Below are positions 3,004-64,000 of a stretch of 64,000 nucleotides of DNA, one piece after another. The translations under genes were made by a program, and so were the position numbers. Below the pieces are notes generated by a model. The model had not been told where the DNA came from. It made no database searches and was given only the letters and a program-made list of their open reading frames with translations. Every line of letters starts with the position of its first letter. Position 1 is the first letter of the stretch. The DNA lies in NCBI GenBank assembly GCA_001662655.1, contig KV460217.1. One strand, 5' to 3'. The stretch comes from Pseudogymnoascus verrucosus (lineage: Eukaryota).

Positions 3004-6000
3004 ATGAGTAGCGATGTGATAGCTGGCGTGGTGGCGCCGGTGGTGGTGGTCGACGACGACAGCGCTGCGAAGACGGCGGCTGGACTGTTCTCGCCCCCGG
3101 ATAGTAAGAAGAGGATGGTGTTTGAGGATAGCGATTCGGAGCTGAGCGAGTTGGATGAGGAGGGGTATTCGATTGGTGCGCGGCCTGGGATGGGGGAGGT
3201 GAAGGAGGAGAGGGAGGGGGGAGGGGGGAAGGATGAAGCTGGGGCGGTTGGCGAGGAGAGGAAACCCGAGGAGGAAGAGGCTGCTGAGGAGAAGGAGCCG
3301 GAGGTGGATGTGGATGATATTGGGGAGGTGGTGCCGGATCACTATGCGGATGAGGGGAGAGTGCCGGTGTTCAAACCGACGATGCACCAGTTTAAGGACT
3401 TCCAGGTTTATGTGAGATCCCCCCCGCGACGTGTGTCAGTTATGACGCCGTAGCTAACGTTGTACGCAGATGGATCGCATCAACAAATACGGCATGCAAT
3501 CCGGCATTGTGAAAGTGGTCCCCCCACAAGAGTGGCTCGACAACCAACCCGCGCCTGACGAAATCATCAAGACGATTCGAGTTCGCGAGCCGATCAAGCA
3601 GGATATCATGGGCACGAATGGGACGTATCGCCAGATGAACCTGCTGCACCAGAGAGCGTATAATCTTCCGGAGTGGCGCCAATTGTGCGATCAGACTGAA
3701 CATCAGCCTCCTGCGCGACGTGGTGAGGTGCGCGCGACGCAGGAGAAGACGAGGAGTAGCGGTCGCGTTAAGAAGGAGAGCACACCAGCGGGGGAGAGAG
3801 TGGCTGCGCAGTCGAGAAAGAAGAATGGGCGGGCGTCGAGGAAGAGCTTGGCTCAGAAAGACGCGGATAAGGACCAGAAGGAGAGGCTGCCAACACCGAC
3901 TTCTCCACCCATCAAGCCGGACGATGACGCCGAGGCACCCAATCTAGAGCTGCTCGAGGAGGACGAGCCACCGCGTAAGCGTATGGGTGGTGGTGGTGGC
4001 GGACGGGGAGGGAAGGCTACTACGGTGTCTTCGCGCCGCAAGTACGGCCGCAGAGAAACGGCAGGAAAGATCGATGAAGCTGCATTCGAGAACTTCGAGT
4101 ACAAGATGGACATCTCCGATTACACTCCCGAACGCTGCGAAGAGCTCGAGCGCGCCTACTGGAAGACCTTGACTTACGCACCTCCGCTGTACGGCGCGGA
4201 TATGTTGGGGTCTCTGTTTGACGAGAGGACGACTACTTGGAACCTTGGAAATCTGCCGAATTTACTGGATGTTATGGGCACCAAGATTCCGGGTGTTAAT
4301 ACGGCTTATCTGTACCTTGGGATGTGGAAGGCTACGTTCGCGTGGCATTTGGAGGATGTCGATCTCTACAGTATCAATTACCTCCACTTCGGTGCTCCCA
4401 AACACTGGTACAGCATTTCGCAGCGGGACGCGAGGAAGTTTGAGGCTGCTATGAAGAGCATCTGGCCCACGGATGCTAAAGAATGCGATCAGTTCCTCCG
4501 ACACAAGACATTCCTCATCTCTCCATCTACTCTCCTCAAGAACTACGGCATCAAGGCCAACAAAATCACGCATTTCCCCGGGGAGTTCATGATCACTTTC
4601 CCATACGGATACCATTCTGGATTTAATATGGGCTATAACTGTGCTGAGGCTGTCAACTTCGCGATGCCATCCTGGCTGGAGATGGGACGGATTGCGAAGA
4701 AGTGCGATTGCGCCCAGGCTCAGGACAGTGTCTGGATCGATGTTGCACAGATTGAGCGCAAGATGCGTGGAGAAGAGACTGATTACGAGGAAACTGACGA
4801 GGAGGAGGAAGAAGAGGAAGATGAGGGCCCGACCGATCTCCCAACTCCTCCGGAAAGCAGTGGCGATGCAAAACTTAAACAGCCTCGACGCAAGCGGAAG
4901 CGTGTCGTTTCTGATAAGGATGGAGTAGACAGGACGAAGCGCATTCGCATCCGCATGAAGATCTCAAGCGAGCCTTGCTGTCTGTGTCCTAACGACATCA
5001 AAACACAACCTCTCATCCCCACCGAAGATGGCCGTAAAGTGCATCGCCTCTGCGCCGAATACACCCCCGAAACCGACATCGACGAAGGCATCGTCTACAA
5101 CGTCTCCGCGATCGGAAAGGACCGCCTCGATCTCAAGTGCATGTTCTGCCACAGCCGGAAGGGCGCCAAGATCCAATGCTCGCAGCGGAAGTGCACTCGG
5201 TCGTACCACGCCACGTGCGCGGCGGCTGCGGGCATGTTTGTCGAGACGGGGGAGATCCCGGTGTTTGGCGAGGATGGGACGGAGTACAAGCAGCAGGGTA
5301 TTGAGTTTAGTTGTCGCTTCCATCGCGCGAAGAGGGATAAGAAGCTGGATGAGTATGCGTTGGAGGAGGATGAGGATATTAGTCGGGCGGCGATGGCGGT
5401 GAAGGAGGGGGAGATCTGCCAGTTTCAGTTCTTGAGGAAGGAGATCTTTGCGGGTGTTGTGGTGGAGAATAGGACGAGCGAAGAGGTGCTGCTTGTTGAT
5501 ATCTTGCCTTCTGGGTATGTATTCCGATTGCGTGGTGTGAAAGCGGGTGGGCCGTGGCTAATACATAACAGTGATCGGTTCGAAGTTCAGTATAAGTATA
5601 TTCTGCTACCAGATCCTACCGACTTCCATCTACCTAAACCCTCCGACAAGGCAATCCCGATGCCAAGATCACGACACGCGAAGGATGCCCTCGTCACAAC
5701 CAAACGCCACGCCGATGACCTACCAAGAAAAGACGACGCCTTTGTCGAAGGCGCCACTTGGGCAGAGTTCAACTCCTTTAACACACCTAGGAACCCGGCT
5801 CAGGTCAAGGTCGACCTATCGAAGGAGAGGCAGGTTATGTATTATATGGGCAAGACCTCGACGGAAGCCAAAGCACAGTATACAGCGGATTGGACAAAAC
5901 CAGTCTACGATACCAGATGCAACTTCCTCGAGACCATTCCCAAGCCACCCCCAGCACCGCGGGCTTCATATCCAGCCTCTTACCCTCGGCCGAGTGGGCG

Positions 6001-7726
6001 CGCTATCAATCCCTCCAGACCGGCGCCTCCAAGGCCGCCGACGACATCTTACAAGCCCATTCTACCGCCTTCCTATTCGCAGCCGCAACAGGTATCTGTT
6101 AAATCGGATAAACCATACGTATATAAGCCCAAGGCCGAACAGTACTATGCAGATCGACAGGTTAACAATTCGCAGCTGTCCTATACACAAGATCCTTCCC
6201 AGCAATACCGGCAGCAGTCGCAGCCATATCCTTATGGAACGGATTCACGATGGAGGCCTGCGGATAATAGGGCACAGAGTCCATATGTCGCGCCGGCTCA
6301 ACCGCGAGGACCGGTCGCGCAGAACCATTACAATAATTTCAGTGCTCCCAATCCTCTACAACAGGGCAATAACCATACACCGCTCGCCCCGCATTCACAT
6401 TCCCATCCCCAGGCCATGCAGGCGAAGCAAACCCATAACGAAAGCTCCGTCCAAAAACCTACCGCGAAATCCCACGGCCACCGATCCTCAAGTTCAAGCG
6501 CCTTCAAATTCAACGATGTCTTCCAGAAATACCCATACCTCCAGAAACAGCACAACAAAGCACCAGGCACCTACCGCTCCCCGTACCGGCAGGACATGTT
6601 GGGCTTCTGCAACGGCTACGAGGGGGACTTTAGGAAACATATGGAGGCTCAGATGCGCAAGGATCCGAGGTTGCTATCTCAGCATATGATGCAAGCCAGC
6701 AGCGGGCAGCTATCATCACAACCCAAAACCACGACCGCGACTGCCGAGACGCCCAGGAAAACCTACCCAGCCATCCTCCCGCCGGCGAGAGAACCCTACA
6801 GTTCCCCAGCTGCGAGTTACTACCCCAACGGCGCCGCTGCCGCCGCCGCCACCGCCGCCACGTCGAACGCGCTGAAGCAGCAGCAGATGCTGCAGCCGCA
6901 GATTACGAAGCCGACGATGGCGGGGGGGCAGTGGGAGAAGAAGGAGGCGGGGGGGTTGCATCCGGCTATTAGGGCGGAGTATGCGAATGGTGGGGGGGTG
7001 GTGCAGGGGTACCAGGGTGGGGGGAGTGCAGTGGGGATGGTGAGGAGGGAGAGTCCAATTTTGCCGCCGGGGTATCAGAGGCCTCAAGTGCAGCCTCAGA
7101 CGCCGCAACTACAACCTCAGCAACAGGCAGAATCTCCTGCAGCGGGGCAGTGGAACGCACACCTCCACCAGCCCCAGCAGCAGATGACCCACGTCGCGAC
7201 TCCCCCACCACCACCGCCGCAACAGCAGCAGCAGTCGGGGTCAGTACACATGAGTCCCGCAGCACAATATTACTCCCGCCCCCCCTCGCGACCGCAGTCT
7301 TCTCCGCTCACGCAGCTGGCGTTGCAGCCGCAGGTGAACGCTGCTGCGGTTGAGAATGTACCGCCGCCGGTGCAGAATTTCTCGCAGAGTTATAGTAAGC
7401 CTGTTAAGAGCTTTTATTCGGATACTTATCATGCTGTTGGGGTGGTGGGGAGGAAGGGGGGTGTAGCTGCTGTTGCTACACCAGTTGCAATGGCGCACGG
7501 TGGTCCGGTGTTGAGTTTACCACCCCAGCAGGTGGTGGAGACTAAATCCAACAGCTTCACTGGCGCCCCTGTTGCGTTGGAGACTAAAATCCCAGACAGT
7601 GCTGCTGCTGGGGCGATGGATGGTGTACAGATGGGTGAGATCCCAGAAATGGACACCGATTCGGCGGGGATGATGGAGACGCTTATGCGGAACCTGCAGA
7701 GGGCTGCGAGGCAGGGACAAGTTTAA
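3004..7726 (+). CDS. kdmA: JmjN/JmjC histone demethylase, KDM4/Rph1/KdmA family, with PHD-like (HC5HC2H) finger and long P/Q-rich tail
   Basis: Exon 3004-3411 (VPVFKPTM, JmjN) joins 3470 in frame via intron 3412-3469; JmjC motifs AWHLEDVDLYSINY and YGYHSGFN; Cys/His finger CCLC..HRLC..CMFC..YHATC; second in-frame intron 5515-5571. Confidence 0.92.
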
Positions 7727-13117: not shown

Positions 13118-15697
13118 ATGGCTACTGCTGGGCAAATTAAACTTCGTGGGCGCCCAGCGCATACGGAGGGACCGACATATTGTACATATACCCCTGATGG
13201 GAGCAAATTGGTTACCGTGGGAAGCAACAATACTATCCGCATCTACACGTATATGAGCGATGGCGAACCTACGAACATTGATGATTGCCAGGAGCAGAAC
13301 CTGGGTGTTACTGCGGCGGTAGGTTGATATTATTGCTTCTGGAGCGAACTATACTGATTATTTGTGCAGAAAGACTTCTTCATAGCCGGCTCTGAAGATG
13401 GGACAGTTAGCATGTACTCTATGCTCACCAACGCCTTCGATAAATTCCTCGTCCGGTGCACATTGCCAATCCGAGATGTCAAACTCTCTCCCGACCAAAG
13501 CTGGGTTGCAGTGGCAAGTGACGAGCTCACCGTGAAGATTGTGAAGGTCTCGGACCCGAATACCTGCATCTATTTGAGAGACCAAGGGAAACCCGTCAAG
13601 CATTTGTCATATCACCCCAGTGGAAAATACATTGGACTGTCATGTACGGATGGAGTAGTCTATATTTACAAGCTATCGACCGAGGAGCCGGAACTTGTTA
13701 CGAAAATCGACGGTGTTATTCGCAACGTTGACACGGACTCTGAAATCAGCTCGAGGGTTGCATGGCACCCCAATGGCACAGCATTTGCTGCGCCTACAGC
13801 CACAAGAGATATCCAGATAGTTTCGACAAGCGACTGGAAAGTGCAAGGGACATTCACGAATGGACATATGGGAGACGTCACAGCTTTGGCTTGGTCACCG
13901 AACGGATCCATACTTGCTACTGCTGGAAAGGACAGAACGATTCTGCTCTGGAACACTAAAACCCAGAAAGTAATCGCCAGGCATGATTATGCCAACGTCA
14001 TGGATTTGGCATGGCACCCGCGGCATAATCTACTCTCATTCTCCAACACCGATGGTGAGATTTATATCCATTATGATATTGTACCCGAAGAGCATGCTGG
14101 TCTCCTGGAACTCGGACTCCAACCTTCGCCAGGAGAACGTACTGGTGCTCCACGCCTAGGGGAGATTTCAGCAAATATCCAGAGGCAAAATGGCCACTCC
14201 AAAACGGACATGCCACTCCGCCCTTTCCGCGGAGGGACACCGGATACTGTCGATGACATTCTCGGTTCTGTGATGGGCGGCGACGATGACTTTATAGAAG
14301 ACGATGACGGAGCTGGGTACGCCTCTGGGCTGAACTACAATGGTAAACGGCCAGCGGGTATACTGGACGACGATGCCCACTGGGACAAGCGTCAAGCCAT
14401 CAGTTCCATTTGGCAACCTCGCACACACGCTGCATTTCAACCAGGAGCTACGCCCTGGCAGGGCGACCGCAAATACCTCTGCCTTAACCTCCTCGGGTTC
14501 GTCTGGACTGTCAACCAAGACACCCACCACACCGTGACCGTCGAGTTCTATGACCGCGACTTCCAGCGCGACTTTCACTTCACCGACACATTCCTCTACG
14601 ACAAAGCGTGCCTCTCCACCCACGGTACGCTCTTCTCAGCACAACCCCACGACGATGTCGACGCAACCCTCTTCTACCGCCCCCATGAAACCTGGACAGA
14701 GCGCTCAGACTGGCGCACCACCCTCCCCAAAGGCGAGAGCATCACCGCTATCTCTCTCTCCGAATCCTTCATCACTGTCACAACATCCGCAAACTACATC
14801 CGCGTTTTCACCCTCTTCCTAACCCCCTACCGCGTCTACCGCCAGAAGTCCTCCCCAGCAGTCACCTGCGCCTCCTGGCGCGACTACGTCCTGACAATGG
14901 GCAATGGCCCCGTCGGCGCTGATGGCAGCACTACTCTACTCTACAGCATTGACAACGTCAAGCGCGACGAAACCTGCCAGTCTGAGGATGTGGTAGCCCT
15001 GCCCCCAGGGGCAACCGTTAAATCAGTCTTCTTCTCCGACTCTGGCGACCCATGCATCTATGACTCCACCGGCACGCTTCTTACCCTGGTCCACTGGCGC
15101 ACACCCTCGCAAGGTCGCTGGGTGCCTCTCCTCGACACCAAGCTGCTTGCTCGTCTCGCGTCGGGCCGAAAGACGGAGAGCTACTGGCCTGTGGCTGTCG
15201 CGGATGGGAAGTTCCACTGTATCATTCTTAAGGGCCAGGATAAGCATCCGTACTTCCCCAAGCCACTGCTTTCCGAGTTCGACTTCGCCATCCCGATCTC
15301 GTCGCGCGTCGTGAATGAGGAAGATGAGGAGGTAGCGAACGGGCAAACAGAGAAGGATAAGCTTGAGGAGGCGTTTGTGAGGAACAACCTCCTCTCGAGC
15401 TTGTTGGGTGATCTGCTGGAAGCAACTCATTCAACGCATTCACAGCGCACTGAGCTGGCGAGGCGGGATGTGGAGGTTGATAAGACGCTGTTGCAGTTGT
15501 TGGCGGTGGAGTGTAGGGAGGGTGAGGAGAGGGGCATGAAGGCGCTTGAGTTGGTGGGGTTGATGAAGGATCAGACGGGGAGGATGATGGAGGCCGCGGT
15601 GAAGGTCGCGGAGAGATATGAGAGGAGGGTGTTGGGAGAGAAGATCCGGGAAGTGGCTGAGAAAAGGCTGAGGGGAGATGATGATGAGGATATGTAA
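13118..15697 (+). CDS. CTF4: Replisome/cohesion factor Ctf4/Mcl1/SepB (N-terminal WD40 plus Mcl1-mid domain)
   Basis: ATG 13118; intron 13319-13369 joins in frame; WD40 repeats then FQPGATP..RKYLCLNLLGFVWTV..HHTVTVEFYD..DFHFTD, typical of the family. Confidence 0.92.
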
Positions 15698-17157: not shown

Positions 17158-18200
17158 TTAACAGCAGCCGCCAGCGGACCCTGACTGTACTCCTTGCCCG
17201 CCGGTGACTTGCACGGTAGGCTTGTTGTTCGCGGTCGTCGTGCCCATGCGCTCCTTGATCTGGCGGGCCATTGTGAGGAAGGCTTGCTCGACGTTGCTGG
17301 CGTTCTTGGCGGAGGTCTCGAGGAAGGGGATGCCCAGTGAGTCGGCGAATTCCTGGGGGCCAGATGTTAGTTGACTCTTTGTTCTAATCGGGGTCTGTGG
17401 CAGATGACCACAGTGTGCAGGGACTGTCATGTGACAGCGTCACCTGGAGGCTTCATACCTTGGCAACTGTGTACTCGACGACCTTCTTGTCCGACATATC
17501 GCTCTTGTTGCCTACAAGGAGCTTGTTGACACCCTCTGTGGCGTATCTGTCAATCTCCTGCAGCCACTGCTTAACGTTGTTGAAGGAATCCATATCGGTG
17601 ACATCGTAGACGACGCAGATGCCGTGTGCGCCACGGTAATAGGAAGATGTGATGGTCCTGAAACGCTCTTGGCCCGCGGTATCCCACTGTATCATTATGT
17701 TAGCGCCCGGTTGCCTGTATATTTGGTGGGGTGCCTGCGAGGGGTCATACAATCTGTAGCTTCACGGTCTTGCCATCTAACTCAATCGTCCTGATTTTCT
17801 GTCGTTCGTCAGCCACCGTTTCAAGAGCCTCGGCATGTAGCAACGTACGAAGTCAACACCGATGGTGGAGATGTAGGACTCAGTGTAGGTGTCGTCTGCG
17901 AATCGCAGGAGTAAACAGGACTTTCCAACACCAGAGTCTCCGATAAGGAGGAGCTTGAAGAGGTAATCGTATCTGGAAGGATCCACGTCAGCCTCCGTAT
18001 GTTGGGGACGATATGCCCAGGGTCTAGCAGTTGTCGCCATCTTGCTACGATTGTGATGCTGAGATGGTTGTAATAGGGAGTGGTGTATACACTATGGTGC
18101 GAACAAAAGTCAGTCGAACGGTTCCAATAATCTTTATATGGCCGAGTCTGGAATCAGGCAGGGCTGGAGGGTGGAGCTGAACGTACTACTCTGGATTCAT
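17158..18200 (-). CDS. ypt1: Rab1/Ypt1 small GTPase (201 aa)
   Basis: Exons 18200-18190, 17972-17849, 17798-17751, 17686-17459, 17352-17158 total 606 nt: [43 protein letters not shown]. Confidence 0.96.
17973..18189 (-). other. Complex first intervening sequence of ypt1: predicted [D3,4] spliceosomal twin intron (95-nt internal intron 18186-18092 inside the donor of a 122-nt external intron)
   Basis: Minus strand reads GA|GTA[GTACGT..ACTGAC TTTTGTTCGCACCATAG]TGT..GCTGAC GTGGATCCTTCCAG|ATAC; excising the bracket recreates the donor GTATGT. Confidence 0.8.
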
Positions 18201-18858
18201 GATGGCGGATTATTTGCAGAAGATAATAAAATGGGGTTGTATGGAAGGACGTAAAGGCGTCTGCGGAAGAAGTTGTCTTTGTTGTGAAGTTGCGGAAAGT
18301 GGGTTGAAGGCAGCAACAGATTCTGTGGTCTGGGTCTGGAGATGGAGAGATGGAGGAGGCGGAGGCTTACCAGAAAGACAGACTGGTCTGTCTGCCGCGC
18401 GAGGAGTCGTTTAAGAGGCGCGCTGACAGGGGACACACGACAAATGGGGCAGTCTAAGCGAGTGTTATCTCCATTTAGCGCCGGTATCATCAAAGCTGCG
18501 TCATCACGGGAAAAGTTTGGGGGGCTGTGCCAACGGCGAATAAATGTAAACAAACCGATGTAAACATGAGTGAATGCGAGATATATTGAATATGAATGTA
18601 ACTAATTTATACAGTTTGTATTCATTCTTGTAGATAAAGCGCATTACAGCAATCCAAATGTTATGACGCCTTTATTCCGCAGTTTGGTTTAGTGGCGGCT
18701 CTATGATAGCGATTAGCGAAATCCTGCTCCTCCCCCAAGGTCTCCCTCCACCACGAAGCTTCTATCCTCAGCACAACAAATATCTGTACTCATGCGATAA
18801 CCACCATCACTTTCAATGGCTCTATGTCTAGCATAGGCTTCAATCGAACGCCAGGCTG

Positions 18859-20669: not shown

Positions 20670-23045
20670 TCATATGATATTAGCGATGCTGATTCGGTCC
20701 GTCGTCGTCCTCTGCACCTCCCTCTCATCCCTCCGCGGCCCAGCCGGAGAAGTATACGCTGCCCCCGTTCCAGCCTGCGGGGGGAAACGATCCCTCTCAT
20801 CATCGTCCCGCGCGAGTATGCCGACGAGGTACTCCACTCTCTCCCAGCCACCCCAGTCATTCATCTCGCTGTCCGTGAGACTCCCCTTCATGGTCCCGTT
20901 AAACACGCCCTCCCTGTCGTCGCCGGGGAATCCAGCCGTAGCGCGGGAGTTTAAGGCCATCCCCGTTTCGCTACCCTGCCAGACCCAGCCACCGTCTGTG
21001 GTGGCTTGGATGTCGCCGCTGACGTAGGCAACGATTTCCTCATCAGCCATGTCGCGCGGTCGTGCGCCTGCGCGGCGCCGCTCGAGCAGCGTGGTGAGGA
21101 AGAAGACGAGGTTGCGGCCGCATGCTATGTTGGCGTCGCGGTTTCGGCCGATGGAGGCGGATATGCGGACGCAGGTTAGTGCGGCGTCGAAGTGTGCGCA
21201 GAAGAGGAGGACGAGGGTGCAGCGCCAGATGTGCGTTGTGAGCATCGTGCTGGCTGTCGCGCCGAGGAGGGAGGGTTGGGTGTGGTAAGGCGGGTTTGGG
21301 GAGCGGGTTGGGGCACTGGCGCGGGCGAGGAGGTGGGTCGTGTCGAGGGCGATGCGGAGGCATTGTTCTATTGCGTTTGTGCGGATGTCAGGGGCGCAGG
21401 AAGTGGAGAGATTGTGGCGGTGTAGGATTATGCGTGTATTCATTAGATAGATGATAGGAGAGAGCGAACACGGATCGAGGGGTTCGCGGGACTCGAGGCT
21501 GAAAGGGGCCGGGAAAGCAGAGAGGCAGGCGCGGAAGTGGGTATCGAATGTTGCGAGGGTGGTGAGGGCGATGGTGGGACTCTTGATGGTTTTGCGGAGC
21601 TGGGAGATGCTGCGGACGACGTGGATGGTGGGGAGGAGGAGGTGGGTGTGCGGGTTTGCGCCGTTGGGGGCGTGCATGCCGTCGTCGCGGATGTAGTGGT
21701 CGTCGATTGCTGCTGGTAGGGCGACGTCGCAGTCAGCGTCTTCGATGAGGAGGGGGCGGCCCATTTCGACGGAGAGGAGTCGATCCCAGGCGTATATCGA
21801 CCACCATACTCTCCTTCTCATCTCGCCCTCGATGAGAGGCCATGGTCCTGTGTTCATGTGTAGACCGATGTCTTGCGCTATTCTGGTGGCGACTCCTAGC
21901 CATGTCCATGCTGCGGACTTGAGATTCACTTCTGTGAGGAAGATGCTTGTTAATAGTGCTCCCTTGGCATGGTCGATGGTAAACTCGTCGTTCCATAGAT
22001 CGGTCAGCATTCGTGACATCTCGATATACTCCTTTCCCTTGTGAGGCCGTTGAATGCTAGGCTCTGTGCTGAAGACAACACCAACGGCGAGCACTGAGAA
22101 GAATAGTGAGACCCATGCCGTCGGTGTCCGTTCCAACGTACCAATTCGGTAGGCGTCCTCATACTCTTGCCTAAACGTCGGCCAATGCAAGAGGGGAATG
22201 ACGGTATGAACCGAGGCATAATAGGATTCCAGAAGGTGATCTGCAACATGCCTGGCAGGCAACGGTGGCCTTTCCGGGTTGAAGTGTGCCTGGGAACCAA
22301 TTTGTCTATACGGCGCAGGTGGTTTAAATATGCCCCTTCCATAGTTCCGTAGATTCGTTCTCACTCTGGAGAGATCCGGTGGAGGGGGCGCCTGTTTCCT
22401 GCTCTTTGGATGCGACCCAACTTCAGGGAGCAGCAATGCTGTAGGAGTCAACTCATCCTGATCCACATCCGTCTGACCCTCCCGTATATTCATGAGCGAG
22501 CGCAAATGCGAATTCTCCCTTTTCACCTGCGATATTTGCTTCTCCAGATCCTGAACCTGCTTGATAGATGACATCCTCCTATTCGTCTCCTTCGTGAACT
22601 GGCACTTCACATTCCGGCTCGAGCATTCGGAGCAGCTCGTCGTCTCCGTAGCGTCACACTTGACCTTCCTCTCTCGACATGCGTCGCAGCTGGGATCCTT
22701 CCTTCGTTGCCGATACGCTCTCTTCTGAGCTTGGAAATTAGCATTAATCTGCGCCGATGGCAGACCTGGTGTGCCGCTCGACGACCCGGTCGAGGCAATT
22801 GAATCCATCCCCTGCGGCCCGGGCGACGCGGCGTTTGGGTGATAAGAATTCTGGTATGGGGCGTGGAAGTTCGCAGGCGGGAGGATGATATGGTGGGGAG
22901 GCTGCCCGCTCAATCGAGGCGATGGACCTGCGAGACCCCCGCCATATTGCTGGGCCTGCGGAGACGCCGCGGAGGACACAGAGGAGGAATCATATGAGGA
23001 CTGCATGGGCGACCGAGGGTAGTTGTTATGCATTGGAGCGGCCAT
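20670..23045 (-). CDS. Zn(II)2Cys6 transcription factor with fungal-specific TF (middle homology) domain
   Basis: CDACRERKVKCDATETTSCSECSSRNVKC binuclear cluster; AQDIGLH..RRRVWWSIYAWDR..GRP; first in-frame ATG at 23045; no intron needed. Confidence 0.92.
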   Translation of the reverse strand: MAAPMHNNYPRSPMQSSYDSSSVSSAASPQAQQYGGGLAGPSPRLSGQPPHHIILPPANFHAPYQNSYHPNAASPGPQGMDSIASTGSSSGTPGLPSAQINANFQAQKRAYRQRRKDPSCDACRERKVKCDATETTSCSECSSRNVKCQFTKETNRRMSSIKQVQDLEKQISQVKRENSHLRSLMNIREGQTDVDQDELTPTALLLPEVGSHPKSRKQAPPPPDLSRVRTNLRNYGRGIFKPPAPYRQIGSQAHFNPERPPLPARHVADHLLESYYASVHTVIPLLHWPTFRQEYEDAYRIGTLERTPTAWVSLFFSVLAVGVVFSTEPSIQRPHKGKEYIEMSRMLTDLWNDEFTIDHAKGALLTSIFLTEVNLKSAAWTWLGVATRIAQDIGLHMNTGPWPLIEGEMRRRVWWSIYAWDRLLSVEMGRPLLIEDADCDVALPAAIDDHYIRDDGMHAPNGANPHTHLLLPTIHVVRSISQLRKTIKSPTIALTTLATFDTHFRACLSAFPAPFSLESREPLDPCSLSPIIYLMNTRIILHRHNLSTSCAPDIRTNAIEQCLRIALDTTHLLARASAPTRSPNPPYHTQPSLLGATASTMLTTHIWRCTLVLLFCAHFDAALTCVRISASIGRNRDANIACGRNLVFFLTTLLERRRAGARPRDMADEEIVAYVSGDIQATTDGGWVWQGSETGMALNSRATAGFPGDDREGVFNGTMKGSLTDSEMNDWGGWERVEYLVGILARDDDERDRFPPQAGTGAAYTSPAGPRRDEREVQRTTTDRISIANII

Positions 23046-24276
23046 GCTATGCTTCAATGCGTTGGCGGGTGGGGCGACGGTGATAGTCGTCAGAAGAGCG
23101 ACGACGACGATCGACGAAAGAGGATATGTGAGCCTCGTCGCATCAACACACCAATGATTTGGAGCAATGAAAGGCCAATACTTTAATTCTTAGAATTTCC
23201 GCAGCGAGCCCGCGCGCCGGACGTGGGGAAATTCTCGGGAGCTAGAGGTCCGCGATTCAATGAACTCCCGTTAATAGAAGCCGCAGAAAGCAAGGCTAGC
23301 AACAAAGAGTGTCCGAAAAGCAAGGATTACTTTTCCGAAGAAAAAATAATCTAATAATTGGCTTCAGATGCTTTGTTAGGTGAAGAGAATTTTCAGGAAG
23401 GATTTTTTTCCAAGGCGGGATTGTGCGACGTCAAGGAATGGTAAAAGTCGCCCCTCGGGGTATTTGGATATCCGGCAAGGAAGAAGCCTTGGAAGAGAAA
23501 TGTGTGCACACACGCACCAAGTCGGGTGCACGCCGGAAGAGATGACCAGGAACCGGCGGCGAAGTTGCCGTTGATGTAACGGGCACGAGGGCAAAAAAAA
23601 AACCTGGGAGTTGTTGTTATAGTATACGTATATATGCAGGATATATGTATGTATAGACTTTATGTATCTGCGACAGGTTATTAAAAGATGGCCAACGGTA
23701 TATGGGTAGGGCCTTTTGAATCCCCACCAATTATTCACGGGGCCGATGGACGGGCACTTAAGAGGCATGTTGTAACAGCGTAACAGGCAAATAAAGAGGA
23801 TGTGAAAGAAGAGGCAGCCACGAATATCTTAACGAATCAGATATGAGTGAAGGATTGATGGGGGATGGAAGAATTGAGTAGTGGCCGAGGCTGGCTGATG
23901 GCTAGATGTTGGAGTATGACGGTGGTGGTGGCGGTGGTGGCATGGAAATAACCAGGCTTCGGGGATAGCGGTCGGTTTGATGTTAGGGAATGGCCACTTA
24001 AGGCGGTTTGTTGGTGGGTGGGAGGAAGAATAGTAAGTTTAAAGACAAGACAGGTGAAAAGGGCTTATTTGGACATGCATGGTATATGTATGGAGTAAGG
24101 ATGATGATGTATATGTATAGAGTATGTACATGGAGTATGCATGTCAGAACGAAGTACTCATCGGTCGTACGTAGTATGCATTTGGTATGGAGGTATGGAG
24201 TACCCCGCTGTCCACATTCCTCTAGAGAGTTAGTTTAGAAGAAAGAGGAGAGAGAGTAGAAGGAGGGTAGTAGTAG

Positions 24277-29677: not shown

Positions 29678-30093
29678 CAATACAAAGAGCATTACTCTTC
29701 CAAATTCCTCATACGTTTGCCATTCCAATTCTTGACGGACAGAACTTGTGTTCCACGCCGTGTACCTTCTAAAATTCTCTCCTTACCTCTCTCCCTCGAA
29801 CACAATTCCCATTTTTCCCTTCGAATTTCGTTGTGTACCTCAATTCCTACTGTCTAGAGTGGACGCGTCAAGTTACCCCTCAATTCCTGCACCACCTCCC
29901 AACATCAAAGCCTCCAACCAAAACCCCCTTTTATTTCTGCAACAGGCACCATACCCTGTCTAAGCAGTCTTTGTGTTAAGACCGAACTTTTGTGCGACAA
30001 ACACTGCATTGTGTCATCCTCATCACCTTCCCCCACCAAGTCTCAAATCTTAACCCCCAACACATATCGGCAAATCACCCCACCAAAGTCATC

Positions 30094-31146
30094 ATGTGCA
30101 ATTCCAAGCTTCACACGTTTCTGGCGGGCCTCCCAAAGGTTGAGCTTCATCTCCACATTGAAGGCACCCTTTCCCCAGAGCTCCTTTTCAAGCTTGCCGC
30201 CACGAACAAGATTGAGCTCCCCAAGTCCGACCCCGCCTTCGCCTCTCCTGAGGCCCTCCAAGCCAGATATGACCGCTTCACGTCTCTCTCTGACTTCCTC
30301 CACTACTACTACATCGGCATGTCCGTCCTCCTCACCGAGGCCGATTTCACCTTCCTCGCCTACGAGTACTTCTCCCGCGCTCACGCTGATAAATGCGTCC
30401 ACGCCGAGATTTTCTTTGACCCCCAAGCCCACACCTCGCGTGGCGTCGCCTACGATACCGTAGTCAAGGGCATTGCTGAAGCTCAGCGCAAGGCCAAAGA
30501 AGACTTCGGCATCACCTCCAAGCTCATCATGTGTTTTCTCCGCGACATGGCTGTTACCAGCGCCAACGACCACTTCACCCTGGCGGCCAACCACAGCTAC
30601 TTTGCTGACGGCACCATCGCCGGCATTGGACTCGACAGCGCCGAGGTTGGGTTCCCGCCCGAGTTGTTCCGCGATGTCTATGCGCAGGCGAAGGAAGCTG
30701 GTGTCCACCGCACTGCCCACGCTGGAGAGGAGGGCGGCCCAGATTACCTCTCCGGTGCTCTTGACAACCTTAACGTCGAGCGCATCGACCACGGCGTCCG
30801 TCTTGCGGAGGATGCCGAGCTGATGAAGCGCGTTGCGACTGAGAAGAAACTCTTGACGTTGTGCCCGATTAGCAATGTGAAGCTGCAGGTAGTCAAGGCC
30901 GTATCTGAGCTTCCAATCAGGAAGTTTCTCGATGCCGGCGTTCAGATCTGCTTCAACTCGGATGACCCAGCTTACTTTGGGGGATACCTTCTTGATAACT
31001 TCTGCGCCGTTGAGGAGGCTTTCGGACTGTCCATCGAGGAGTGGAAGGGAACTGCCGAAGCAGCCGTTCGGGGATCATGGGCTGATGAGGAGAGGAAGGA
31101 GGAGATTCTCTCCCAGATCGAGGTGTATGTTACCAACTACAATTGA
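30094..31146 (+). CDS. AAH1: Adenine deaminase (adenosine/AMP deaminase family)
   Basis: LPKVELHLHIEGTL, EIFFDPQAH, TAHAGEE, RIDHG, LTLCPISN, NSDDPAYFGG motifs; first ATG at 30094. Confidence 0.9.
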   Translation: MCNSKLHTFLAGLPKVELHLHIEGTLSPELLFKLAATNKIELPKSDPAFASPEALQARYDRFTSLSDFLHYYYIGMSVLLTEADFTFLAYEYFSRAHADKCVHAEIFFDPQAHTSRGVAYDTVVKGIAEAQRKAKEDFGITSKLIMCFLRDMAVTSANDHFTLAANHSYFADGTIAGIGLDSAEVGFPPELFRDVYAQAKEAGVHRTAHAGEEGGPDYLSGALDNLNVERIDHGVRLAEDAELMKRVATEKKLLTLCPISNVKLQVVKAVSELPIRKFLDAGVQICFNSDDPAYFGGYLLDNFCAVEEAFGLSIEEWKGTAEAAVRGSWADEERKEEILSQIEVYVTNYN

Positions 31147-55195: not shown

Positions 55196-57478
55196 TCATA
55201 CAAGAGTAATGACATATCGTTTATCGATATGTTTACGATTGCTTATGACCTCTTTGCAGGATGCCTTTGCAGTCGCCTTTCCATGTCTTTTTAATACTGG
55301 TAGAAACCGCTCGTAACTCTCTTCTTCGTCTCCATCGCTATATTTGGAGCGATCTTTGTAGAATTTAAAAGATCCGATCCTACAAAACTCGCCTTTTGTG
55401 ATGCCTGTAGCTTGAAGCACAATGCCCTCAATCATGGACTCATAGATCATGTTTTTGCCTTTTCGTCGTGTCCCAGTGCCAGTTTTTCCGCTCAAGATAG
55501 GCAACAGATAGCATAGTTTACCAGACGATGTGTTATTGTCGTCTTGACAGTCTATCTGAACGGAAAAGTTTAACTCCCTATCGCCAGCATATAATACAAT
55601 GGTGGCATCTGCTTCAGGTTCAGGATAATTAGATTCACTCGGGTAGACCAAGTAGCCAGCTGCCATAGTTGAGCAAGCAAGTCGAATGACTCCAATAGTC
55701 ACCTGCCCGAACGGATCATAGCCGATTTTGGTTGTATACGCATCTAAGACTTGCACGTATGCGGTGTCAAGGCCACCTTTGTGTCGACTATGCCAGGTCA
55801 CTTCTCCATCTATAGATGCCCACGACCAAGTCGGTGCTCTCCAAGGTGGTCGTGGTTGCATAGGTGGTCGTGGTCGCATCATAATGGGTGGATATCTCGC
55901 ACGAGACCAACATAGCTGCTCCTCAAGTTCACCCCTCCACAGCCCCGCAAGATAGAGATCGCCGGTTTCTTCATGTCCAAGTCTCGCGATTCCAGAAAGT
56001 GCTGGTAATTTGTCTTTCCCAAAAGTTAGATTTGCTGCAGAATAAAGCCGCACGATATCAAGCCAGTGGTCTTGGAGTTTCCCATTTCGTCTAACGAGGT
56101 TACGCTGGAGTTTACGTGGAAGACCATCCGGCAAGTACTCCGAGGCAATTGTCGTTCTGCATTCCCAAAAAGCACCTCGGTCGCCAACGTGGATTGTTCG
56201 AGGGGGTAGCATTTTCTCTTGTAGTGCCCAAGCTCTGGTTCCCAAATGAGTTTCAAAGGTTGAAAGATCGTAAATTTTTGAACTATGAAAATCCTGTACT
56301 CTTCGTAGCTCGCCGTCTGTTATTCGAGCTCGAAGCCCACCGCTGAAATAGGGTTGCTTCGTAAAACACCCTTGCCTACCGTCTCGAGCGGAGCACGCAG
56401 CTATCGTGATGGTTGAGCCACCAAATATGGAGCTCATCAGGGCCGACTCCTTTTGCCAATCCTCTACACTATCTTGGATGATACACAGCGAATCGATCCA
56501 CAGATAATCCAAACCCAATCTTTGTGTAATCTCGATACCATCCTTAAATGTTTTGGGGAATCTCTCAACGGGTAGTGCTTCTACATATGTGTCTAGGTCA
56601 TCTGAAGTGAGTTTTATGACGTCGTAAGACCCCCAGCTATGTGATAAAGTAGCATATCTCGGCTTATTATGACATTCCGAAGTTAGCACCAAGCGCGGCG
56701 ATTCACCAGCAATCGAGATCAGCCTAGTCGGTAGTGTGTCGTTGCCATTGTTTTTACAAAGATCGTGGTTTTCGGTACATTTCGATAACCAGTTGTTCGC
56801 GATATCGAATACATCAAGCTGGTCATCAAAACAATCAGCTTCAACGAATTAGCAAGACTGGGCCATCATATCAGCAAAACATGACAAACCTGATTCGGGA
56901 AGGAAACATGACCCAATAGTCATATTCACAGCTAAACCGGAATTGCAGGAAGTGCAGACCTTGCCAGGTAGGTTCAACCACAGGAGTTGTATTGGATTTG
57001 AGCCCCAACTCTGAATAGATAGTGATGATAATGCATTCTCATCGAGATGGTATAAGCGTGCTTCAACCTTGCGAAATGTGTCAAGTAAATTCCTATCTTT
57101 AAGGTTCTGCAGTAAAAATGCGCAAAATCTGCATCCAGAGCGTGTCGAGCTTTCCAATTCAAAGGTGCTACACGGCCGCGCGACAGCGTGTTCCCATCCT
57201 CCATCTGGACTAGGCCCCGAGTCGTGTTCTCTAGTCGATGAATCACCTAGTGTAGGCCAATGGTCAAACAAACTTTGACATTTAGCGCAGAATCTATTGA
57301 CGATGAGAACATTTAGTGCCGATTCCTTTATTCGCTGTTCAACGAATTTGGCATCAAGCTCGTCGGAATCCACGGCCTTAACGATATTGGAATCAATAGA
57401 GAGGTCATTGCCGCGCGCCGCTGTATATTCACGGAACCATTCTGTAAAGATCTTTGCGTTGGAGCCTTGCATCTCCAT
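55196..57478 (-). CDS. HET-domain (heterokaryon incompatibility) protein
   Basis: Intron 56889-56839 joins the two ORFs in frame; YATLSHSWG, PKTFKDGI, YLWIDSLCIIQD, RAWALQE, DKLPALSGIA, APTWSWAS. Confidence 0.88.
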
Positions 57479-58036: not shown

Positions 58037-58257
58037 CATCTCTATTGTCGCCTAAGTCAGTCCTGGCTTTTCGATGCCTCGGCATCAAAAACGGTGGAGC
58101 TTCCCCGCTACCCCACACAATCCTACCCGTTACTTACTACAACTTATATAGAAAGGAATGCCTCACTATTAATGTCCTATACCTATAATCTATCTATTTA
58201 GAATAGATATATTACCCATTTACCATTTATTTACGGTCCCTTGTAATTTATCACAAT

Positions 58258-59934
58258 ATGCCCCAAACCTGGCAATCCATAGGCGCCAAAAAGCGCGCCG
58301 AGCAAGACCGAGCTATCCCATCCGAATGGAAACTAAAATCACTCCCCCCGACCTCCCAGCTTGATGTCCGCTCTATCCCCTCCACGTGTGGCATCCTCAC
58401 CGCCGATGAGATCTCTATAACAGAGGATCATGACGCCTACTCTCTCCTCAATGGTCTCCATGGCCAATCCCTCACAGCCCTCGAAGTCACAACCGCCTTC
58501 TGTAAGCGAGCGGCCATCGCCCACCAACTCACAAGCTGCCTCACAGAGATCTTCTTTGACCGGGCCCTCGCACGCGCCAAAGAGCTAGATGACCACATGG
58601 AGCGCACCGGGCGCGCCTTCGGTCCTCTTCACGGCCTCCCCATCTCTCTCAAAGACACCTTTAACATTGCCGGCATGGACTCCTCACTTGGCATAGCGGC
58701 CATGGCCTTCCATCCCGCCCCAGCCAACTGCCCCCTAGTCGACATCCTTCTCGCCGCCGGCGCCGTCCTCTATGTCAAAACTAACATCCCGCAAACCCTC
58801 ATGGCCCTCGACAGCATCAACAACGTCTTCGGCCGCGTCCTCAATCCAGCCAACCGCGCGCTAACAGCCGGAGGCTCCTCTGGCGGCGAGGGAGCCCTTC
58901 TCGCGCTCCGCGGCTCCCCCCTCGGCGTCGGAACCGACATCGGTGGCTCCATTCGCGTGCCGGCTATGTGCAACGGGCTGTACGGGTTCAAGCCGTCGTC
59001 CGGGCGGATTCCCTACGTCGGACCGATGGGCCGGCTGACGACGACGCGGGGACGACTGGGGTTGCAGACGTCGGCGGGCCCGATAGCAACGAGCTTGCGC
59101 GATGTGGAGGTGTTTATGGAGGTCGTGGCGAGGGCGCGGCCGTGGGAGACCGCGGCGGATGCGCTGCCTGGGGCTTGGGAAGAGCAGGGGCGCGCGGGGG
59201 ATGAGTGGGAGAAGCCGGTGTTTGGGGTGATTCGGTCTGATCACTCTGTTACGCCGTTGCCGCCCGTGGCTAATGTGGTCGAGGAGACGGTGGTGGCGCT
59301 CAAGGAGGCCGGGTTAGAGGTGGTGGAGATTGATTCGAAAGCGCTGGCGGAGTGTCAGATGCTAGCGTACGGGTTCTTTGATATTGGGGATAATGCGATG
59401 TTGGATTTGATTGAAGAGACGAAGGAACCGCTGATTCCGTGGCTTGAGGGGAAGGTGGGGAGGAAGGCGCCGAAGAGCGTGGAGGAAGTTTCGGAGCTGC
59501 ATGCACAGAGGTTGGAGGTGATGAAGAAGATGCTTAAGGTTTTCAAGACACCCGATGGGAGGAAGATCGATGCGGTTATCTTGCCAGTTGCGCCGCATCC
59601 AGTGCCTGAGATTGATCGCTGGAACACTGTGGGGTATACGAGCAGCTTTGTGCTTTTGGATTGGCCCGCTGGAACCGTGCCCATCCGGATGGTGAATGAG
59701 AAGGATTTGGAGGGAGAGGTGCAGGGGAAGTCACTGGGAACCTTGGATAATAGGACGAGAATGCTCTGGGATCGCAAGACGGTGGATAGAAGGGTTTATT
59801 TGGATAGTGCTCTATCTGTGCAGGTGGTGGCGCCAAGATTGCAGGAGAGGAGGCTGTGGCAGGCAATGGACATTGTGGATAGAGTTATGAAGAGGAAGGC
59901 GTCGACACAGGAAACGACAAAGGCGAAGCTATAG
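58258..59934 (+). CDS. Amidase-signature family enzyme (acetamidase/general amidase)
   Basis: GPLHGLPISLKD, KTNIPQ, GGSSGGEG, GTDIGGSIRVPA, YGFKPS; intronless; ends in AKL. Confidence 0.93.
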   Translation: MPQTWQSIGAKKRAEQDRAIPSEWKLKSLPPTSQLDVRSIPSTCGILTADEISITEDHDAYSLLNGLHGQSLTALEVTTAFCKRAAIAHQLTSCLTEIFFDRALARAKELDDHMERTGRAFGPLHGLPISLKDTFNIAGMDSSLGIAAMAFHPAPANCPLVDILLAAGAVLYVKTNIPQTLMALDSINNVFGRVLNPANRALTAGGSSGGEGALLALRGSPLGVGTDIGGSIRVPAMCNGLYGFKPSSGRIPYVGPMGRLTTTRGRLGLQTSAGPIATSLRDVEVFMEVVARARPWETAADALPGAWEEQGRAGDEWEKPVFGVIRSDHSVTPLPPVANVVEETVVALKEAGLEVVEIDSKALAECQMLAYGFFDIGDNAMLDLIEETKEPLIPWLEGKVGRKAPKSVEEVSELHAQRLEVMKKMLKVFKTPDGRKIDAVILPVAPHPVPEIDRWNTVGYTSSFVLLDWPAGTVPIRMVNEKDLEGEVQGKSLGTLDNRTRMLWDRKTVDRRVYLDSALSVQVVAPRLQERRLWQAMDIVDRVMKRKASTQETTKAKL

Positions 59935-61964: not shown

Positions 61965-64000
61965 TTACATCTGATAATTGAAGTCGAGGTCAGGCCATAC
62001 TTGGTCCGAGGCATTTTGTGGTAGTCCTGGCCAGACGTGGCTGTCGAAGGTTTCCTAAACAAATGCTATCAGCTTATGAACCTCTTGTTAATATTAAGAA
62101 GAAGACGTTCTGTCCTGAAATTTGACAATTATAGAAGTTCGACTTACCCAGTCGAAATTTCCAGGCGAATCTAATATTGTTTGCAGGGGTTCCGAAGGCG
62201 TGGATACAGAGCCCAAGTTGGATTGTAGCCCATACTCTGAAGCCTGCATCATATTATTGGAGGGGTCGAAGTTCCATGGTTGATTCCCGTCGGTAGCAGT
62301 TGGTAAAACAGATGCCATTGAGTCTAGATTAGTATTTGTTAGCTATAATTTTCCATGTCATGTGCTGAGAAGATGAAACATAATGTTTAAGGGGAAACAG
62401 GTCGCGCGTCGTTAACTGAAAGAGGTTACGCTGCAATAATTATGTATTTGCTCACCATTGAGTGATAATTCCGAGATGGAATATGGCCTATCAGGCATCG
62501 CTGAGGCCCTTTCCATACCGTCAACTGGAGCATTAGCATTATTAAGGACACATCCAGCAGGAGCCAAATTAGCGTTCTTCATCATGGCACCAAGAATTCT
62601 GGATCCTTTCTCCGCATTAGCCGACATAGATTCTGTGTCAATCCAGACGGCATGTGATTTCTGGAGAGCAGCAACCATCTCATCACGGGATGGTTGTGAT
62701 TCGTCTAATGAACTGTTATATTCACTGCTGGGACTCTCTTTCGCCAATTGAGTGAGGCTAGAGTATACTATCATCCCGGCAAGAAGGAAATCGTGGACTG
62801 ATAGGGACGAAAGGAACCACCTGTTCAGAGCCAATGGCCCTCCAGGGAGAGCGGCTTGATGAATGGATGATTGATATGAAAGCAGCTCCATTGCCGCATC
62901 AACAGCAACTTTTTTGGAATAAGATTCTGTCGCGATGTACTTCCGATGTAGCATACACCGACTCTTTTGTAATAGCAAAGCAATGCTATATCTTTGGATG
63001 ATAATTGCAGCAGGATCGGTAATTGATAGTTCTAAGGGTTTCAGGCGCATGAATTCCGGTACACCAGCTTCGGCTTCCTGAAGAACCGTGTCCAAGGCCA
63101 TAACCTCATCATACGATGGCAGAGACATACGGTTGGCAAGCACGCCCACCTTTCCAAAGACTTCACATATTCTGCTCTTGCAAATGGTGTACGACAATGG
63201 TGTAATTTCCGTTTCCGGTCGGGATGGTGGTAGTTCCGTTGAGTTCTCATCGAAGTCTTCATCTTTTAAATTCCGTGGGTATGCCGTGTCGCTCTCGATC
63301 GCCTGGGTCATAACAGGTAGGCCAAGGAGGAAGCTGCATAATAAATCAACTTGAATAAGGATATGCCAGAGACGTCGTCGCATCTCGCCTTGATAAGGTG
63401 TCAAGCTTCCCCCAACGTTTGCTGGGTCTCTGTGAAGACCCATACGCAAGGCTAGGCGCACTGCAATACCAATAAGCAAATACGGCATCCCCACATCGTC
63501 GTTACTCAAGACAAATTCCCCTTCAATATAAATCAAAAGCGCTTCAAGGGTGTAAGCCCCGGGCTGGGAGTAGTTGGAAAGAACAAGGCACTGAGCCGAA
63601 CAACCGCGATAGGTGCGAATCATTTCTGTTGGTGTTCCGCGCGTATCAGTATTACCTTCTCCAGCTCCGAGCGCTGCAAGAGTTGCAAGGCACATCAATG
63701 CGTATAGCAGGCCTAGCCAGCTGACTGGAGTACTGGACGGATCGGCCCAAAATCTATTGTACTGCCATTTGTGTCAGATGCGAAAATAGAGGCAACCATG
63801 CAGCAAAAAATTGAAGAAATACCTCTTTCAGGAACGTTGGGCGGTGAATAATATCTAGAGAACGTTTAGCTGACGTTGGCTGGTAGGTAAAATTCAGACT
63901 CACGTATAGCTGGGCTGTTTGAATTAAAGTAACGGGAAACAAGCCGATCAACAACTCCCTTCTGAGGTAAAGCTGCTATGAGTTCGAGCTTGGTAACACG
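61965..64000 (-). CDS. Fungal-specific transcription factor (probable Zn2Cys6), 5' end outside window
   Basis: IIHRPTF, ALRMGLHRDP, EMRRRLW, LHRKY, HDFLLAGMIV; short terminal exons (FDW|ETFD) ending TAA at about 61965. Confidence 0.85.

Follow-up and report, generated by a model that had tools for sequence, protein, structure and literature searches.

The gene ypt1 (Rab1/YPT1) lies on the minus strand of contig KV460217.1 of Pseudogymnoascus verrucosus (GenBank assembly GCA_001662655.1), of which we analysed a stretch of 64,000 nucleotides (nt), referred to here as the window, with position 1 as its first letter. The first of its four introns, 217 nt long, falls within the codon for the fourth amino acid. 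We examined the splice signals of this intron, the joints present in assembled sequencing contigs that cover the gene, and the corresponding introns of other ypt1 loci. The results indicate that intron 1 is very probably a real and widely conserved stwintron of the donor-split [D3,4] type, in which an internal intron separates bases 3 and 4 of the donor of an external intron and removal proceeds by two ordered U2-type reactions. This structure had been proposed in an earlier prediction made from the letters of the window alone (the original prediction), and it is supported by the nested layout of 64 of 67 orthologous introns together with the mature splice junction.

Layout of ypt1 and its first intron

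We follow the definition of the donor-split stwintron sensu stricto given by Flipphi and Fekete (PMC7138796); what is said here of the stwintron papers refers to the accessible parts of their text. Intron 1 of ypt1 contains two nested sets of splice signals (Table 1). The internal intron carries a complete canonical set, consisting of a donor, a branch element and an acceptor, with the branch A at 18110, 18 nt ahead of the acceptor G. It interrupts the external intron's six-base donor between bases 3 and 4, and its removal produces a canonical donor. The branch A of the external intron is at 17988, 15 nt ahead of the acceptor G.

The consequences of using these sites were followed by computed splicing. 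Removal of all 217 nt, together with the other three introns, gives a five-exon coding sequence of 606 nt with a single terminal stop and the protein MNPEYDYLFK...GGCC. Excision of 18186-18092 alone produces the junction GAGTA/TGTATAC (a slash marks a splice site throughout), that is, the donor GTATGT. Joining 18187 to 17972, through the strong donor at 18186 and the distal acceptor, gives Met-Asn-Pro-Glu (MNPE) followed immediately by a stop codon. When re-read from the sequence, the coordinates given for intron 1 in the original prediction are correct throughout on the minus strand. The fusion of GTA and TGT into GTATGT and the MNPE-stop product of donor 18186 with acceptor 17973, both of which it had described, are reproduced.

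We then considered contigs assembled from 4 of 24 listed sequencing runs (X19, X1, X4 and X16) and aligned to the window. X1 and X4, which come from two studies, are not recorded as RNA; they behave as transcript assemblies and leave the four introns uncovered. Contigs of both runs join 17972 to 18190 (depth 30.6 and side 75 in X1; depth 7.09 and side 39 in X4), which skips the 217 nt with GT..AG ends on the minus strand. Further joints, 17351 to 17458, 17686 to 17751 and 17798 to 17849, skip the other three introns too. Because the contigs join 18190 to 17972, the frame-keeping junction at the position of the poor donor is real, as had been predicted, and the mature messenger RNA lacks the entire 217 nt and is in frame. 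The pieces of the 5' untranslated region (5'UTR) in the X1 and X4 contigs differ from the window by two letters or one letter, so that these transcripts must stem from the species of the window or a near relative.

Loose ends of X4 contigs at 17962-17972 run into the spliced exon 1 of other organisms, for example one with the start ATGAACCCTGA. This shows that X4 is mixed and that relatives use the same splice junction. X19 covers the introns, behaves as DNA and holds two forms of the region. At 17963-18225 these are of similar depth; one differs from the window by 1 letter, the other by 26 letters and 5 gaps over 263 nt, so that the run contains two genomes or haplotypes related to each other. 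X16 covers the window at 18596-18700 only.

Table 1. Coordinates of ypt1, of the parts of its first intron and of long open reading frames (ORFs) around it.
Feature	Position	Strand	Basis and remarks
ypt1 (Rab1/YPT1), Pseudogymnoascus verrucosus contig KV460217.1	17158..18200	minus	sequence and contig joints
5'UTR	reaching at least 18317	minus	X1 contig spanning 18190-18317, joined to 17972
Exon 1, coding part	18190..18200	minus	sequence; ATGAATCCAGA, Met-Asn-Pro and two Glu bases; ATG 18200-18198
Whole complex intron 1, 217 nt, proposed [D3,4] stwintron	17973..18189	minus	sequence and X1/X4 joint
GTA, bases 1-3 of split external donor	18187..18189	minus	sequence
Internal intron, 95 nt	18092..18186	minus	GTACGT 18186-18181, ACTGAC 18114-18109, TAG 18094-18092
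TGT, bases 4-6 of split external donor	18089..18091	minus	forms GTATGT with GTA after first splice
External intron, 3' part, 119 nt (3+119 = 122 nt with GTA)	17973..18091	minus	GCTGAC 17992-17987, CAG 17975-17973
Exon 2, last Glu-codon base to VDF	17849..17972	minus	sequence, contig joints, spliced coding sequence
Intron 2, 50 nt	17848-17799	minus	X1/X4 joints
Exon 3	17798-17751	minus	X1/X4 joints
Intron 3, 64 nt	17750-17687	minus	X1/X4 joints
Exon 4	17686-17459	minus	X1/X4 joints
Intron 4, 106 nt	17458-17353	minus	X1/X4 joints; boundary ambiguous by one base
Exon 5	17352 to stop 17160-17158	minus	spliced coding sequence
Long ORFs around ypt1	3458-7726, 13358-15697, 20670-23189, 29980-31146, 55196-56848, 58207-59934, 62412-63773		products named in the text

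First introns and donors of other ypt1 loci

A comparative sample was obtained by scanning metagenome contigs with a pattern made up of an AG acceptor, the base that completes the Glu codon and the beginning of exon 2. Since this pattern is limited to the acceptor and exon 2, the sample is blind to the 5' end and middle of the intron. The scan yielded at least 114 loci. Among the matches listed, exon 2 is of the ypt1 type in 85, the other 29 being chance matches; 71 of the 85 ypt1-like loci have an exon 1 of the form ATGAAYCCNGA (MNPE) within reach. With the window this makes 72 first introns of 145-541 nt. Sixty-seven of them are distinct (66 besides that of the window), and all counts out of 67 given below likewise refer to the matches listed.

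We scored an intron as having the complete nested layout if it opens with GTN/GT, contains CTRAY 8-45 nt before a YAG that is followed by NG[TC], and has internal and external units of at least 40 nt each. The original prediction had named a conserved GTA[GT..AG]HGT in relatives as a mark of the stwintron. The corresponding GTN/GT opens 66 of the 67 distinct introns, and the complete layout is present in 64, the window included. Dinucleotide shuffles of the intron interiors gave a mean of 4.2 nested introns out of 67 over 200 rounds (standard deviation 2.0, maximum 12). With the triplet taken 1, 2 or 3 nt further 3', the counts are 7, 7 and 12 of 67, and with it taken 1 nt further 5' the count is 3. 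The control two bases upstream gives 36, a trivial result that comes from reading the acceptor's own AG plus a pyrimidine. Across all 112 internal sites that combine a branch element with YAG, the next triplet is AGT in 45, AGC in 10 and TGT in 6. The remnant triplet left in front of the internal intron is GTA in 40 introns, GTG in 22 and GTC in 5.

Internal units measure 54-183 nt (median 90) and external units 78-424 nt (median 105), with branch distances of 10-28 nt (median 15). The shortest of the 67 introns, at 145 nt, is about as long as two fungal introns, and the other ypt1 introns in the window measure 50-106 nt. The sequences themselves are close to saturation: the introns have a median pairwise identity of 0.57 (shuffled pairs: 0.53, maximum 0.63), and the median identity at third codon positions of exon 2 is 0.56. 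Single-linkage clustering at 70% identity gives 49 clusters, of which 46 are nested.

In the window's own lineage, the window and locus L023, which are 88% identical over the intron, differ at 33 positions, none of them in a splice element; the nine bases GTAGTACGT, ACTGAC, CATAG/TGTATAC, GCTGAC and CAG are all unchanged. The intron of L100, 64% identical to that of the window, retains CTGAC...CATAG/TGTAT. Intron 2, which follows the VDF codon, is missing in 6 of 63 loci (L031, L047, L051, L052, L067 and L101), and all six keep the nested intron 1 and the intron after KLQI. The nested intron has thus persisted through gains and losses of ordinary introns of the gene. GTN/GT is likewise the opening in five loci whose N-terminus is different or cut (L025, cut; L035, MQPE; L064, MASQE; L069, MVTPE; L078, MNSE). 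Four of them pass the rule for the internal sites, and L064 has CAG/AGT without a strict CTRAY.

To compare the strengths of the competing donors, we built a matrix from introns 2 and 3 of ypt1 in the sampled loci. These supplied 115 donors, the weakest of which scores 2.7 bits, and all 115 have G at position +5. The donors that a direct removal of intron 1 would have to use are GTAGTA (28 introns), GTGGTA (19), GTAGTG (11), GTCGTG (5), GTGGTG (2), GTAGTT (1) and GTGTGA (1); in 66 of the 67 the base at +5 is T and not G, and the same number score below the worst of the 115 reference donors. In the window the direct donor GTAGTA scores -4.44 bits, the internal donor GTACGT 10.25 and the rebuilt donor GTATGT 9.96. 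Rebuilt donors were counted in 65 introns under a slightly relaxed rule and comprise GTAAGT (24), GTGAGT (16), GTATGT (6), GTAAGC (6), GTCAGT (5), GTGAGC (4) and four singletons. They have G at +5 in 65 of 65 cases and A at +4 in 56 of 65; the second base after the internal acceptor is G in all 65.

Routes of intron removal

The layout suggests the following course of splicing. U1 would bind GUACGU at 18186 and U2 would bind ACUGAC, with the branch A at 18110. Intron definition would pair these sites with the nearest acceptor, UAG at 18094-18092, and the 95-nt internal intron would leave as a lariat, joining ...GAGUA to UGUAUAC. This junction would create the consensus donor GUAUGU, which is not present in the primary transcript. 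Together with GCUGAC (branch A 17988) and CAG at 17975-17973, the new donor would define a 122-nt intron, the removal of which would join 18190 to 17972 and lead to MNPEYDYLFK.

Several observations weigh against this course or limit its reach. The junction of 18187 with 18091 that would mark the intermediate is not among the joints in the contigs of the four runs, and assembled contigs drop rare forms; we infer the intermediate and the order of the steps from the layout and its conservation. The 67 introns share ancestry and are not 67 independent events, so that the 46 of 49 clusters is the fairer figure, and the taxonomic range of the layout is deduced from metagenome contigs. Three introns fail the layout rule. 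L070 rebuilds GTAAGA. The internal acceptor of L059 is TCG, whereas that of its sister L110 is TAG, and either a real loss or an error of assembly may account for the difference. The third, L086, is shifted by one base, and with G at +5 its direct donor, GTGTGA, could be used in one step. The remnant GTC of five introns (L009, L052, L057, L066 and L067) would give a weak rebuilt donor, GTCAGT, and the lowest score of any rebuilt donor, 1.38 bits, is below the 2.7 bits of the worst training donor. Finally, the window taken by itself is only weakly unusual, as 335 of 5,000 dinucleotide shuffles of its intron interior (6.7%) are also nested, 179 of them with a rebuilt donor of the form GURWGY.

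The figure of 6.7% speaks for an explanation in which the internal signals are coincidental in a long intron and have no role. The layout goes far beyond chance only when the relatives are added. There it is shared by 46 of 49 clusters and by 64 of the 67 introns, against the shuffle mean of 4.2 of 67, which contradicts the coincidence; we consider this explanation extremely improbable. A more serious alternative is removal in one step, in which all 217 nt are cut from the poor donor GUAGUA at 18189, with U1 recruited by the overlapping GUACGU and the cut made three bases upstream, so that the internal sites are bystanders. The start of the intron does have the form of a tandem GYNGYN donor, with two overlapping GY donors three bases apart (GTAGTA, 18189-18184; GTNGT in 66 of 67 orthologues), and tandem and shifted-register donors exist in other eukaryotes. 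The mature junction of 18190 with 17972, which is all that was observed of the splicing, is expected equally from removal in one step and in two, and the donor of L086 noted above would suit the former. However, one-step removal leaves unexplained why a branch motif, a YAG and then NG[TC] are kept in 64 of 67 near-saturated introns across internal lengths of 54-183 nt, why AGT, AGC and TGT so often follow the internal sites (45, 10 and 6 of 112), and why none of the 67 introns is shorter than 145 nt, about the length of two fungal introns. It would also require 66 of 67 introns to use donors weaker than every one of 115 real ones. We therefore regard it as improbable. Reading the region as two adjacent introns around a one-base micro-exon was rejected, as this would break the frame and contradicts the observed junction. 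Folding of the 217-nt intron is no better than that of shuffled sequences (z = 0.54), 143 of 200 of which reach an equal or better fold, and near-terminal stems like those reported for some [D1,2] stwintrons are not apparent.

A further possibility concerns not the two steps themselves but an addition to them that came with the original prediction: that an unproductive shortcut from 18186 to 17973, which retains GTA and yields MNPE-stop, could be regulatory. The balance between the two routes would then set the level of Ypt1. Such a shortcut is sterically possible, and it would produce a stop codon in 61 of 66 introns (TAA in 39, TGA in 21 and TAG in 1). An analogous one-step 'missplicing' has been described for [D1,2] stwintrons (PMC12403724), as has an alternative one-step route for the [D6,7] sequence of Lipomyces starkeyi (PMC7138796). 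However, the stop needs no selection, because it is formed by the donor's own GTR (+1 to +3) with the first A of exon 2, and in the five GTC introns the shortcut would insert a Ser without breaking the frame. The joint of 18187 to 17972 that this form, three bases longer and with the stop codon, would leave is not among the contig joints, from which assembly drops rare forms. Regulation by such a shortcut seems to us unlikely.

We thus return to the [D3,4] stwintron with two ordered steps. Its nested arrangement appears, from the sequence comparison, to be old and held by selection: the loss of any internal signal would leave either a donor without G at +5 or the four-codon stop shortcut. In L086, about 290 nt upstream of its exon 2, the layout is shifted by one base to GT/GTGAGT...CAG/ATGT, a [D2,3] arrangement that rebuilds GTATGT. 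The internal branch site followed by CAG/AGT (TAG/AGT in L067) is kept in all five introns with the GTC remnant. L078 has GTA/GTAAGT...TAG/AGT 458 nt upstream of its exon 2, with an internal unit of 401 nt and an external unit of 57 nt. Its AT-rich sequence, MNSE start and lack of any intron in the roughly 150 codons read after exon 1 give it a yeast-like look, and the layout may therefore reach beyond Pezizomycotina.

The external intron of the window also contains an ATG (18040-18038, minus strand) that opens a stop-free frame of 23 codons into exon 2 in the frame of Ypt1, as part of an ORF at 17777-18091. L023 and L100, the latter 64% identical, retain both the block ATGGCGAC and the open frame, and outside the splice signals this block is the best conserved of the external intron. 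As a general feature, an in-frame ATG with no stop ahead of exon 2 was rejected: of 67 introns 19 have one, compared with 27 and 8 in two control frames. Elsewhere in the window, the long ORFs encode a JmjC/PHD protein, a Ctf4/Mcl1 replication factor, two Zn2Cys6 fungal transcription factors, an adenosine deaminase, a HET-domain protein and an amidase; the HET domain and the Zn2Cys6 factors are marks of a filamentous ascomycete.

Relation to known stwintrons and significance

The types of stwintron named in the literature are [D1,2], [D2,3], [D4,5], [D5,6], the sensu lato types [D6,7] and [D7,8], and [A2,3] (PMC12403724, PMC5639578, PMC7138796, PMC9024468, PMC6616335, PMC8469720, PMC5587772). 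Types other than [D1,2] are rarely met, according to the 2025 stwintron paper. In the accessible parts of these papers [D3,4] is absent from the types named, a bracketed term of this kind not being searchable as text. The same parts contain no mention of ypt1 or GTPase, nor of Rab where this was searched. No ypt1 paper was found among the matches listed for literature on nested, twin or recursive introns.

The closest parallel is the [D2,3] stwintron of bioDA, found in Sordariomycetes and others (Flipphi, Fekete; PMC5639578), in which an internal U2 intron likewise splits the donor hexamer. Both elements are conserved over wide fungal groups and lie in a well-conserved gene. The bioDA stwintron is described as stable because loss of the internal sites blocks correct removal, and in this respect we draw a likeness to ypt1. 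The two differ in the gene and in the point of the split, after base 3 in ypt1 and after base 2 in bioDA, and the ypt1 intron of L086 has itself shifted to the bioDA-type layout. The bioDA intermediate has been shown by reverse transcription PCR, whereas the ypt1 stwintron is known from its layout, its conservation and the mature junction. The [D4,5] stwintron of the Lipomyces lipofer reticulon-like gene (PMC7138796) and the [D5,6] stwintron of rtnA (PMC6616335) are also donor-split, at neighbouring positions; unlike them, the ypt1 donor takes three bases from each side. The rtnA element occurs across Pezizomycotina and has been called the most ancient stwintron described (PMC6616335), whereas the ypt1 sample includes L078 and its range may exceed that subphylum.

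Like the common [D1,2] type (PMC12403724, PMC9024468), the ypt1 element has one U2 intron nested in another, and their removal would likewise take two consecutive reactions under intron definition, with a potential one-step 'missplicing' shortcut between the internal donor and the distal acceptor. The shortcut leaves one G in [D1,2] and would leave three bases, which form a stop codon, in ypt1. Copies of [D1,2] stwintrons can multiply as 'sister stwintrons', whereas the ypt1 element is single, fixed in position and, to judge from its distribution, old. There is also a likeness to recursive splicing, as in Drosophila Ubx and long vertebrate introns, in that a first splice would create the 5' splice site for the second, a site missing from the primary transcript. 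A ratchet point, however, has the form YAG/GTRAGT, with the whole donor downstream of the junction, and lies in a very long intron; ypt1 has TAG/TGT, a three-plus-three hybrid donor and an intron of 217 nt. The relatives show YAG/AGT, YAG/AGC or YAG/TGT and never YAG/GT.

A broader scenario can be drawn, in which obligatory two-step removal is ancient in ascomycetes, perhaps beyond the filamentous subphylum (L078), and, far from being a frozen accident, acts as a kinetic gate that tunes the output of this essential trafficking GTPase through the dead-end shortcut, with an in-frame ATG adding a second N-terminal form in some clades. We put it forward as speculation with little probability of being correct.

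Stwintrons are the clearest natural proof of intron-definition pairing in fungi and serve as models of intron gain, shift and loss. A split between donor bases 3 and 4 would fill a gap in the [D] series named in the accessible literature. The ypt1 stwintron stands out because it occupies a fixed position in an essential, single-copy and highly expressed housekeeping gene, and because its layout is found in at least 46 sequence-unrelated intron lineages, whereas most described stwintrons are limited to a few species. It also carries a risk for annotation, as a gene finder that favours GTACGT would call a four-codon ORF or a wrong start. With the natural variants that it offers, namely the [D2,3] shift, the GTC remnant and internal units from 54 to about 400 nt, the first intron of ypt1 would be a ready model for ordered splicing.

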